Shown here: piece by piece, positions 90 through 34,500 of the stretch
How positions within the stretch are numbered: position 1 is the stretch's first letter
Layout of the letters: each line of letters begins with the position of its first letter
Source: Escherichia phage EC22.5-2
DNA: 42,480 nt
Sequence record: OR845139
Strand: one strand, 5' to 3'
Position numbers and translations under genes: made by a program
The notes under the pieces: generated by a model
What the model was told of the DNA's origin: nothing
The model's database searches: none
What the model saw: only the letters and a program-made list of their open reading frames with translations

Positions 90-860
90 CTAGATGGCTA
101 TCCCTAGTGCGCTCTAGGAGGGCCGTAGAAGCTCCCTGCGTGCCTTAATGGTTATCCCTAGTGCTATCCTATGCCTATCACTGTGCGCCTCTTGTGGAGG
201 CTCTGGGAAGCTCTGGGAGGCACTAGGGTTATCCCTGCGTGCGCTCTGGGTGCTCTGCGTGCTCTCTGTGGGGCGTAGAGGTGCGCTCTGCCTTGCTTAT
301 TTTGTGCGGTCGTAGTGCCGCACCTAGTGGGCCAGTAGTGGGCCATAGTGTGACCTCTAGCGGGCCTCTAGTGGGCCGCCCAGTGCGCTGCTAGTGCGTC
401 TATATGCTATCTCTAGAGCTATCTCTAGGGTTATCTCTAGTGCTTTACATTGTGCCGATTATATGCTACGCTGCGCGCTCCCCACTAGGGCGCACATCCA
501 CTGCTCACCACTATCCGCCACCTAGCGTTATCCCTTGCTATCCCTAGAGCTATCCCTCTACCCTTACTTTCATTCGAAAGCTAATTGGAAATGATGTTAC
601 ACGAGTAGGAGGGTTTTAGGGCACTACATATACACTACCTACTACTACTCACTAGTATCCTCTAGTAATGCCCTGTATTACGACCGTAGGGAGTAAGCAT
701 TACCTACACAGTCACCGCATCGCTCCGTGTCCTTTCACTACGTCCGGACACTACGCTCCGCTCTATGTAGTACCGTGTAGTGTTGGCTAGTATTGGTTAG
801 CACTGGTTAGTATTGGCTAGTATTGGGCTATCACTAGAGCTATCCCTAGAATGGAAGCAT
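90..860. repeat. Left-end non-coding region packed with short degenerate repeats (ctatccctag-like, tagtgggcc-like, tattggYtag tandem units, gctctg units)
   Basis: Many copies of ctatccctag / ttatccctag / ctatctctag (e.g. 98..107, 152..161), about 5 tandem tattggYtag units near 781..826, tagtgggcc units near 325..385; no plausible ORF. Confidence 0.7.
594..610 (+). promoter_or_regulatory. Copy 1 of conserved motif ATGTTACA(C/G)GAGTAGGA, candidate phage RNA polymerase promoter
   Basis: atgttacacgagtagga; matches 20722..20738 and 32301..32317 at 16 of 17 positions; located in non-coding left end. Confidence 0.4.
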
Positions 861-912
861 TGGCTAAGTATTTGCCCTGCTTACCCTTTTTGCTCACAGT
901 GATAAAAAGTTT

Positions 913-942
913 AAAAAAGTGCTTGCTTCTTTTGGTTTATTG
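913..942 (+). promoter_or_regulatory. Candidate host sigma70 promoter (TTGCTT - 18 nt - TATAGT)
   Basis: -35-like ttgctt 913..918, 18-nt spacer, -10-like tatagt 937..942; upstream of early genes. Confidence 0.25.
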
Positions 943-31506: not shown

Positions 31507-31555
31507 TAGAGGCCCTTCGGGGCCTCCCCTTATCAAAATTCTTTTAGGAGATAAT

Positions 31556-34500
31556 ATGGCTCAGTTTCTGAACCAAGAACCGAATCCACAGGAAAAGGAT
31601 TCTGCTAAGGGCGCAACACTCAAACCTGCGCCTGCAAGCGTAGATTGGAATGACGCAGGAGATGATGGGCTGAATGCACTACAGCGTTCATCTATACTGG
31701 CCCAGGCTAAAACCCCTGCGACGTCAGCAGGAGAAAGCTTTGCTGCTGGGGTTGGTAACAGCATTATAGCTGCAGCCATTAGAAAGGCCTCCTCCCCAAC
31801 ATTCGTCCCAGAGCAGGGGTTTGATGCTAAGAAACAACTAAGCACCGACTCCCGAGCTAAGCTCTACACCCCTAATCAGGAAGAGATTGATTACTTGCAT
31901 GGGGCGGTGTCCTTGGATGATTATAATTATCGCATTCAGGCTATGCTAGAACAGCGTGACCGTGACCGTCAGATGTCTGATAACACGGTAGCCGGGTTCG
32001 CCGGTGCACTGGCTGGTGATGCTCCATTTATACTGGCTCCGATGTCAGCGGCGGGTATCGCTGGTCGTGCTGGCTTAGCAGTGCGTACTGCTATCCGTGC
32101 AGCGGATGTAGGTACAGCTGTCTATGCACAAGATCAATTGGGACAGTCTGCGGCAGTCACTGCTCTGGTAGCAGGGGTAGCTGGACTAGACCAGCTCTGG
32201 GACATGTCTAAGGCTGCTAAAGTAGCAGCAAAGGCACGCACTGGGCGTGAGCCTATGTTTGACCCGGACGCGCCCACAACTCGTACAGCTAGGGATGCTA
32301 ATGTTACAGGAGTAGGAGAAGGGGACACAATACTCACTAAGGTACTGGATGAACCTATCCAAGTTCGCCGGAATAACACTGCTGCTGTTAACATGAAAGC
32401 GCAGGACGTAGTCCGTTTCCTCAAGACCTCTGAACACTTATCTAAAGGTCAGAAGGCTATCCTGGACACCCTGGGTGATGCAGTACAGGACATCGATTTT
32501 AAACTGGTGGCTGGTTCTTCTAACCGTAGCCACTATGGATTTTCACCAACATCAACCACTGATAGGGGTTTTGTATCTTTACGTGCCCCTAAGAAAGCTA
32601 ACGGAAGTACCTGGACTACTGCTGGGGACGCTCTGCGTGCTATGGATGCGGACACTAGCCGAGTAGCAGTGCACGAGCTGATTCACGCTGCCACCACCAG
32701 AGCCATCAAGCAGAATCCTGAAATTGCTAGTAAGCTGGAAGAGGTGCGCGCTGCAATAGCAGCGGATTCAACTCTTAGTGATAAACTCAAGTATTATGCA
32801 AGCGATGTGCACGAGATGCTGGCTGGACTGGGAGACAGCCCTGAGTGGGTAGAGTACCTCTCTAGGACTAAATCCCCTACTGGTAAGAGTATGCTTCGCC
32901 AGATTGGTGGGTATATCATGAATGCGCTTGGGGTCCGTACCAAGGGCTCCGCTCTGGAGGATGTTCTGGACGCGTACGAGGACGCTGTCAAGTGGACCGC
33001 AAAGGACTACGCAGACCAAGCTCAGAGCTTCCGGAGTGAGTCCTTCCAGGACTTGGCGGATACATCGGTTAAGCATGAGGCCTTGAAAGCTCAGGCTATG
33101 ATGGACACTGCTAAGCGCAAGCTCGCCACTATGTTCTCCTTGTATGATAACATCGCAGAAGGTAGTGAGGACCTAGCACGCTTATTAGTATCTGATGCTA
33201 CTGCTGTAGGAGGTCGTAAGCCGTCTGTGGTGGACTTCAAGCGTAATCTTACGTTGGAGATGGACGCTAGTGCCAGTGTAGTTGAGGATGCTATACTAGG
33301 TGCCCTCAAGGCCAAAGGTGTAGGTTTCACGGACCGCTTCTTCCATCGTAGCAACTTCCGAGCAGCTCGCGCTGACTTAGAAGACCGCTTAGGCCGTTAC
33401 CTGGACTCTGCATACAGTGCTGAGGTTAATGGGCGCCCTGTACCTCTGCCGGACTCTGACCTAGTCCCACTCGTAGAAGCGTATCGCAACTCTGGTTGGG
33501 CTAGTAAGTGGCACGACCACATGACCGCTGCCGGTTTAGTGGATGACGGTACTCTGGTTAAATCGGACTACTACTTCCCACGCCAGTATAGCTACGATAA
33601 GATGCGCCAAGGTATTGCAAATGGTCGCTCCCTGGATAATTATCGGGATCTGTTCCGTCAGGCATTACGTGACGTGTATCCATCTATGGAACCTGAGGTC
33701 GTTCAACGTGTTGCTAAGGAGATGGTTGATGGTATCTACAACGGACGCTCCTCGGCCTCTGGTCCTATGTGGAAGCAACTCATCAATGGTATGGGTAATG
33801 ATGAAGTGGTTATGGCCATGCGTAATGCTGGCGTAGACGAGAGTGCAATCCAGAGTTTCTTGGCAGGTAATGTCCGAGAATCTGGCGCTACCTCGCCTGC
33901 TCGGAACCTGCGTCAACGTACCCGCTTCAACATGGATAAAGAGTACATCGTGGATGGTCAGGCTATGCGTATGCAGGACCTGATGGACACTGACGTAGCC
34001 AAGGTAATGCACGGCTACACCAACCGCATGTCTGGTCGTGTAGGTATGGCCTATGCTGGTGTCTCTGACCTCAAGACTCTAGAGACGATGATTAACGAGT
34101 CCAAACACGCCCTAGCCGATTCGGGTAAGTGGGAGAAGACTGTTAATGATACCATTGACTTTATCCTGGGTGGGGCCCCGGCCGATGCCGGGCAGATGCC
34201 GGACCTGTTGCGTGCAGCTGGTAACATGGCTAATGCCACCATGCTCAAGAACTCCGGGTTGTACCAGCTTACTGATACAGCCTTAGCTATGAAAGAGTTT
34301 GGTATGTCCCGAGTACTCCGTAGTATGCGTGAGCAGCCCTGGTTTAAAGAGGGTGCCGTAGCTATTCGTAATCCGGACATGGCTAGTCGCCTTGATACAA
34401 TCCTACGTGGCAGTATCCAGAAGGAGATGCGCTTCCGCTGGCTGAATACCTACGCAGACGATAACTTGGACCTGACCCGTCAGGCTTCCTGGTTTAACGT

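Follow-up and report, generated by a model that had tools for sequence, protein, structure and literature searches.

Four copies of a short motif lie on the + strand of the genome of Escherichia phage EC22.5-2 (sequence record OR845139), whose 42,480 nucleotides (nt) were analyzed as a whole and are called the window below. The motif is very probably a promoter read by the phage's own T7-family single-subunit RNA polymerase (RNAP), the same element as in phage KP34. Three of the sites, copies 1, 3 and 4, match the KP34 promoter in sequence, exactly or with one substitution, occupy syntenic positions, are conserved in related phages and covary with the polymerase. Copy 2 is a distinct variant and a candidate only. 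This kind of element is already known because of the biochemistry of the KP34 RNAP (PMC6834552) and a 2025 study that predicted 467 KP34-like promoters in 135 genomes (PMC11880802). The main result has little significance beyond annotation; copy 2, which seems not to have been described before, is the loose end.

Three sites correspond to the strong promoter of KP34

Using purified KP34 RNAP, in vitro transcription and 5′-RACE (rapid amplification of cDNA ends), Lu et al. (2019, Front Microbiol 10:2487, PMC6834552) described a strong 16-nt promoter, 5′-T(A/G)ATGTTACAGGAGTA-3′, at nt 475-490, 22197-22212 (right behind the RNAP gene) and 33721-33736 of KP34, with initiation at nt 22213. The 14-nt core common to the sites was much weaker by itself than the 16-nt sequence. 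We reached that paper through a full-text search for TGTTACAGGAGTA; our literature search found no Drulisvirus transcriptome or transcription start site data. The KP34 record places one site at the left end, one 5 nt past the RNAP stop codon and one inside gene 48, which encodes the internal virion protein. Copies 1, 3 and 4 of the window are the syntenic equivalents of these sites and are co-directional with the genes.

Copy 3, the main late promoter (20720..20738, + strand; 19-mer TAATGTTACAGGAGTAGGA), consists of TAATGTTACAGGAGTA followed by GGA and is identical to KP34 site S1. It begins 5 nt past the RNAP stop codon, with G20736 as its inferred +1, and the next gene opens with the ATG at 20739. 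Copy 4, the intragenic late promoter (32299..32317, + strand), has the same 19-mer, TAATGTTACAGGAGTAGGA, and is likewise identical to S1; it lies 745 nt into the internal virion protein gene, where it is read as the codons A-N-V-T-G-V-G, with an inferred +1 at 32315. Both match the KP34 strong promoter exactly over its 16 nt. Copy 1, the left-end promoter (592..610, + strand; 19-mer TGATGTTACACGAGTAGGA), comprises TGATGTTACACGAGTA at -16 to -1 and GGA at +1 to +3, with an inferred +1 at 608, and is the equivalent of KP34 site S2 (nt 475-490) with a single substitution, G to C at -6. Copy 2, the core-variant site (12716..12734, + strand; 19-mer TAATGTGATACGAGTAGGA; inferred +1 at 12732), reads TAATGTGATACGAGTA and then GGA, the triplet that directly follows the 16-mer at all four sites. 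It departs from the KP34 strong-promoter sequence, and from copies 3 and 4, by three substitutions (-10, -8 and -6); judged by its sequence, it does not belong among the canonical strong promoters. The base C at -6 is common to copies 1 (TGATGTTACACGAGTA) and 2.

The motif stands out clearly from the background. With up to three mismatches, it occurs exactly four times on the + strand of the window and never on the - strand, for a chance expectation of 0.18, and none of 100 shuffled sequences attained four matches. The four sites have 0, 0, 2 and 3 mismatches to the 19-mer; the + strand holds no match at four mismatches and three at five (3229, 16111 and 33193), a number near the chance expectation. 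On the - strand of the window, no 19-mer match was found up to six mismatches.

A sequence-only reading of this DNA had proposed a conserved 17-nt motif at four + strand sites as a candidate promoter of the phage RNAP. Our pattern search of the window recovered all four sites where that reading had placed them. The repeated unit is real; it starts 2 nt further upstream than described, which makes the copies 19-mers, and copies 3 and 4, said to agree over 18 nt, are identical over 19. The assumption of one shared consensus does not fit copy 2. The assignment to the phage RNAP holds for copies 1, 3 and 4, given their match to KP34, their synteny and the 96% identity of the RNAP to the KP34 enzyme. 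The gene context given for the sites was also correct, namely, the RNAP open reading frame (ORF), the ATG at 20739 directly behind copy 3 and the location of copy 4 inside the internal virion protein gene.

The sites are conserved across Drulisvirus at the DNA level

For comparison, we assembled 63 portal-anchored loci from IMG/VR and several complete genomes, giving about 1.2 Mb of related loci. With up to four mismatches, the 19-mer was found there 157 times on the + strand and not once on the - strand. Equally good - strand matches, which would have spoken against a promoter, are thus absent from both the window and the related loci. The site was present at every covered orthologous position (49/49 loci for copy 2, 63/63 for copy 3 and 36/36 for copy 4), in keeping with the expectation that a promoter should recur at syntenic positions in related phages. 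Copies 1, 3 and 4 are never missing from the roughly 65 related genomes. In genomes with an additional gene between the RNAP gene and copy 3, copy 3 is still joined to the ATG that follows.

Because copy 4 lies in a coding sequence, its third codon positions are informative. Only 1 of 7 is variable within the motif versus 62 of 80 in the flanks (P = 0.0015), which bears out the earlier proposal that this copy is under selection for the DNA sequence itself. The sole variable third position is -7, where ACA alternates with ACC, both encoding Thr.

In KP34, a weak and imprecise promoter, W (ACTTTGGACATCCGTCAAGT), was also reported inside the 3′ end of the RNAP gene (PMC6834552). Its homologue in the window, ACTTTGGACATCCGACAAGT (20667..20686, + strand, one mismatch), has the same location. 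The positions that vary in this homologue are third codon positions, and coding constraint is enough to account for its conservation.

The -7 base covaries with the specificity loop of the polymerase

The RNAP gene of the window (18246..20714, + strand; stop codon at 20712-20714) encodes 822 residues with a specificity loop of the type ...MNLSAVLVHNRD... The protein is 96% identical to the KP34 RNAP and is homologous to T7 RNAP (E value of 2e-68); its residues 703-706, encoded at 20354-20365, align with Q758-I761 in the specificity loop of the T7 enzyme. In T7 RNAP, residues R746, N748, R756 and Q758 of this loop reportedly contact promoter bases (Cheetham et al. 1999). The aligned strand of the T7 loop is the one that carries the base-contacting Q758, next to R756.

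Residues 703-706 are SAVL in 26 genomes and TIMR in 22, and the -7 base of copies 3 and 4, A or C, splits perfectly with them. Copy 1 obeys the same rule, with A in all 27 SAVL contigs and C in all 21 TIMR or TIVR contigs (48/48 paired contigs); the association is at the level of clades and does not represent many independent events, since one evolutionary event may account for the split. Like KP34, the window belongs to the SAVL/A type. The SAVL and TIMR polymerases with their -7 A and C promoters represent a natural lead for orthogonal enzyme-promoter pairs, and the KP34 RNAP is in development for in vitro transcription.

The two specificity-loop subgroups had been noticed by Eriksson et al. 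(2015), alongside a wrong promoter prediction. The “phage promoter” predicted there, AGCCTATAGC...GCTATGTGAA, corresponds to positions 1734-1765 and 2519-2550 of the window. We rejected it because it is inactive with the KP34 RNAP (PMC6834552). The two 32-nt elements show paired changes, GCATCC...GGGTGC versus GCGTCC...GGGCGC, that preserve a hairpin, which speaks for a structured signal, of RNA or DNA, in the early region.

The sister genus Maculvirus carries its own version of the motif at equivalent places

Vibrio phage VP93, a Maculvirus, has a motif of its own, WAAAGTCCCACGWACAGG, once 2 nt past the RNAP stop codon and again within the internal core protein gene, about 0.9 kb from its start. 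By protein alignment, the intragenic site occupies the codons exactly orthologous to those of copy 4: AAT GTT ACA GGA GTA GGA of copy 4 aligns with AAA GTC CCA CGT ACA GGT of VP93, N-V-T-G-V-G versus K-V-P-R-T-G. The site has persisted through changes in its own sequence and in the encoded peptide, as expected for a DNA signal under selection.

VP93 also has a variant with three mismatches, TAAAGAGTCACGTACAGG, in the gap behind its DNA polymerase gene, analogous to copy 2. Each gap variant is nearer to the late promoter of its own genus (13/16 positions) than to that of the other genus (8-10/16). A degenerate scan of IMG/VR for VP93-type variants returned mostly chance matches and only three near-identical VP93-like contigs. 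The 43 Maculvirus records, with 95-100% identity across this region, have no power to measure conservation.

Copy 2 is a conserved variant with an altered central block

Copy 2 is located in a 160-nt gap behind the DNA polymerase gene and a small ORF, 21 nt upstream of the TTG start codon of a metallo-phosphoesterase gene. Its 19-mer, TAATGTGATACGAGTAGGA, is identical in KP34, KpV74, phiBO1E, phiKpS2 and 48 of 49 IMG/VR loci, and it is invariant within an otherwise variable intergenic gap. It retains the outer parts of the motif, TAATGT and GAGTAGGA, and the probability that a further site of the form TAATGT-N5-GAGTAGGA arose by chance is negligible. The string TAATGTGATACGAGTA did not occur in the searchable literature.

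The features of copy 2 resemble those of a class II promoter of T7: it deviates from the late consensus, it precedes DNA-metabolism genes, and it is conserved in its deviant form. Copy 2 is probably a functional, weaker promoter of the phage RNAP, which would drive the block of genes from the phosphoesterase to the RNAP and hence also the gene of the polymerase itself. A bolder proposal, which we make tentatively and hold to be somewhat less probable than its contrary, is that copy 2 represents an undescribed second class of promoters for KP34-type polymerases, in which the outer parts of the motif are normal, the specificity block is altered and an upstream module, TTGAC plus 29 nt, is present in at least two genera. 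Were this so, the location of copy 2 upstream of the RNAP gene could let the polymerase exert feedback on its own synthesis and on the expression of the middle genes. The failure of copy 2 to follow the switch at -7 would denote a partly different recognition or the help of another factor, and such a low-consensus class would show how phages with few promoters time the expression of their middle genes and the synthesis of their polymerase.

Several points weigh against assigning all four sites to the phage RNAP. The activity of copies 1, 3 and 4 as canonical promoters in this phage would be carried over from KP34, and the G-to-C change at -6 of copy 1 is rare, being found in 1 of 52 IMG/VR contigs. 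The other points concern copy 2. Two of its changes, at -10 and -8, fall in the block read by the specificity loop in T7, and it is the same in both loop groups, ignoring the A/C switch at -7 that copies 1, 3 and 4 obey. It is not among the KP34 promoters reported in PMC6834552, although KP34 carries the site, and no promoter was mapped in the corresponding DNA-metabolism region of the Phikmvvirus LUZ19 (PMC10914365). Finally, a conserved block starting with TTGAC ahead of copy 2 hints at another or an additional function.

This block, TTGACTCTGGCTTGATTCTGTGATT (12681..12705, + strand), is unique in the window, contains two 11-bp direct repeats (TTGACTCTGGC and TTGATTCTGTG) and starts exactly 29 nt before the motif. 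TTGAC is found at exactly the same distance of 29 nt from the motif in the Vibrio phages VP93 (12389-12423), SrVc2 and VP7, and recombinant genomes break exactly at the left edge of the block. The spacer of VP7 and the window share TGATTCACAG.

These observations are compatible with a different reading, in which copies 1, 3 and 4 are still promoters and copy 2 is another type of DNA-level signal, such as a regulator site that might act via the TTGAC repeats, a replication or nicking signal, or a host promoter. The exclusion of copy 2 from the covariation at -7, the repeats with their fixed spacing in two genera and the breakpoints at the edge of the block would all be explained. However, the copy 2 variant tracks the RNAP promoter of its own genus in both Drulisvirus and Maculvirus, which is hard to explain unless it is read by the RNAP, and we consider this alternative unlikely, if still the most serious of those weighed here. 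A host promoter fits poorly. No sigma-70 promoter at copy 2 appeared in a promoter scan, and the best manual reading, TTGATT-18 nt-TAATGT, is a weak one that scores just 7/12 and fails completely in VP93. The TTGACT upstream of copy 2 has no -10 element at a proper spacing, and that region is variable. A long AT-rich RNA hairpin is predicted just upstream of copy 2 (12637-12700, z = -2.9); it is not part of the conserved unit, since four related loci with copy 2 intact have unrelated sequence in place of its left arm.

The possibility of a nicking signal arises from phages of the phiKMV group, whose nick consensus is quoted as CGACNNNNNCCTA/CTCCGG (Kulakov et al. 2009, as cited in PMC3517423 and PMC3604761). 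Its 10-nt core, CCTACTCCGG, is the exact reverse complement of CCGGAGTAGG, which spans -8 to +2 of the C-type Drulisvirus promoters; in the window, the core matches at 9 of 10 positions at 20728-20737 and 32307-32316. LUZ19 has copies of the core at 3139, 6762, 14422 and 24774, and one of them occupies the gap behind the DNA polymerase gene, as copy 2 does, so that the syntenic gap of that phage harbors a nick-associated motif and not a promoter. A link between the two elements was nonetheless rejected. The full consensus CGACNNNNNCCTACTCCGG has only chance-level matches with three mismatches in the window, where the 10-nt core alone fits, and in reverse; and the sole nick mapped in a Drulisvirus is elsewhere, at nt 7873 in the primase gene. 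Because the orientation is opposite (the LUZ19 copies are on the + strand) and the CGAC arm is missing, the likeness to the nick core may be a coincidence.

The motif is very unlikely to be primarily a translation signal

The sequence-only reading had also suggested that copy 3 might double as the ribosome binding site of the next gene. The sequence AGGAG does lie 5 nt before the ATG at 20739, a favorable spacing. It could serve in read-through RNA only: as the +1 determined by 5′-RACE in KP34 corresponds to G20736, the transcript initiated at copy 3 itself would start with GGAAUG, with a 3-nt leader devoid of a Shine-Dalgarno sequence.

One can go further and regard the motif as mainly a translation signal, i.e., a Shine-Dalgarno-rich cassette (AGGAGTAGGA) reused ahead of genes. 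The AGGAG of copy 3 and its adjacency to the ATG, which is kept in 63/63 loci, are what this explanation has in its favor. Yet no start codon follows copy 4, which sits in frame in mid-gene, some 900 nt separate copy 1 from the first gene, and copy 2 is followed by a separate Shine-Dalgarno sequence (GAGAGG). Moreover, the 5′ half of the motif, TAATGTTAC, does not resemble a Shine-Dalgarno sequence, yet it is required for promoter activity, as the 14-nt core is far weaker than the 16-nt sequence (PMC6834552). This explanation is thus highly improbable. The last alternative, that the repeats stem from chance, from protein-coding constraint or from a small mobile repeat and have no regulatory role, could appeal to the location of copy 4 and of the W homologue in coding sequences, and it has practically no chance of being right given the chance expectation of 0.00-0.18, the strict strand bias and synteny of the sites, the frozen synonymous positions of copy 4 and the orthologous VP93 site, where the peptide differs and a promoter-like motif is kept.

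Directly behind copy 3, the first nine codons of the 147-amino-acid gene (20739..20765, + strand; ATGAAGTTAAAACACACTAGTAAAAC) are A/CA-rich and invariant at the DNA level. Among 43 distinct sequences, none of the 9 third positions of codons 1 to 9 is variable versus 29 of 41 in codons 10 to 50 (P = 1.2e-4). This frozen block hints that the stretch transcribed or translated first carries a signal, which might act in promoter escape or in starting the translation of an mRNA with almost no leader. The PHROG profile of the 147-residue protein starts only at residue 14.

Proposed transcription scheme

Assuming that the sites function as in KP34, copy 3, directly behind the RNAP gene, would launch late transcription of the structural genes. 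A strong intrinsic terminator follows the major capsid gene block (25193..25230, + strand; a 12-bp GC-rich stem and then a T run); the same element is annotated in the KP34 and KpV74 records and is among those given by Eriksson et al. (2015). It would attenuate the transcripts initiated at copy 3, and copy 4 probably re-supplies transcription to the distal late genes beyond it, which encode the tail fiber, terminase, lysis proteins and tailspike. Copy 1 would be a left-end promoter upstream of the host-type early promoters, which lie near 1055 in the inferred transcription map of the window; its position resembles that of phiOL in T7. With its outer parts kept and its central block different, copy 2 would most likely serve as a weaker promoter of the middle class, driving the second half of the operon for DNA metabolism, RNAP gene included. 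From sequence identity, synteny, conservation and covariation, we infer activity in this phage, the functions assigned to copies 1 and 4 and whatever activity copy 2 may have.

Within the motif, by analogy with T7, the -11 to -6 block would be read by the specificity loop, and the AT-rich 5′ part (TAAT) and the -5 to +3 part (GAGTA/GGA) would serve for binding and melting. The late promoters of this phage and of its relatives can now be annotated confidently; most GenBank records of the genus leave them unmarked.

Comparison with T7 and LUZ19

The promoters of the window resemble the class III, class II and phiOL promoters of T7 (Dunn and Studier 1983) in several respects. Both systems use a single motif of about 19 nt that ends at +1 to +3, homologous polymerases and a reading of the motif by the specificity loop. 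Both have a late class that follows the consensus and deviating, presumably weaker copies before the DNA-metabolism genes, and each has a copy immediately within the left end, ahead of the host promoters. In contrast, the sequences are unrelated, and the window has 4 sites, whereas T7 has 17. Since the DNA-metabolism genes precede the RNAP gene in the window, copy 2, if class II-like, would be located upstream of the gene for the polymerase itself.

LUZ19 (Phikmvvirus), whose promoters P001 and P007-P009 were mapped by ONT-cappable-seq (Putzeys et al. 2024, PMC10914365), resembles the window in having few promoters per genome and in where they lie: one directly behind the RNAP gene, one within the internal virion protein gene and one at the left end. 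Both share the core ATGTYAC. The remaining motif, GgtTATGTCACacACAnnGG, differs, and unlike copy 1, the left-end promoter of LUZ19 is antisense. Its intragenic promoter is near the 3′ end of the gene, whereas copy 4 is 0.75 kb into the gene. One of the five-mismatch relatives of the motif in the window, TGATGTCACAGGATAAAGA (16111-16129, inside the exonuclease gene), contains the ATGTCAC core of the LUZ19 promoters, and some relatives of the phage have a four-mismatch version of it, TGATGTCACAGGACAAGGA.

Genome context

The window is a Drulisvirus genome (KP34-like, Autographiviridae). Its segment from the RNAP gene to the capsid gene is about 97% identical to those of the Escherichia, Klebsiella and Shigella phages IK_ECO1, AV102, KPV811, Minorna and SFN6B and 83-88% identical to the bulk of the genus. 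Every long ORF is on the + strand, and the internal virion protein gene that contains copy 4 in frame (31556-35254) encodes 1,232 residues. The first 77 nt of the window (1-77) recur exactly at 42404-42480, closing in a G run; this end repeat is either part of a direct terminal repeat or an assembly overlap. The direct terminal repeats of KP34 and phiBO1E are 216-224 bp long.

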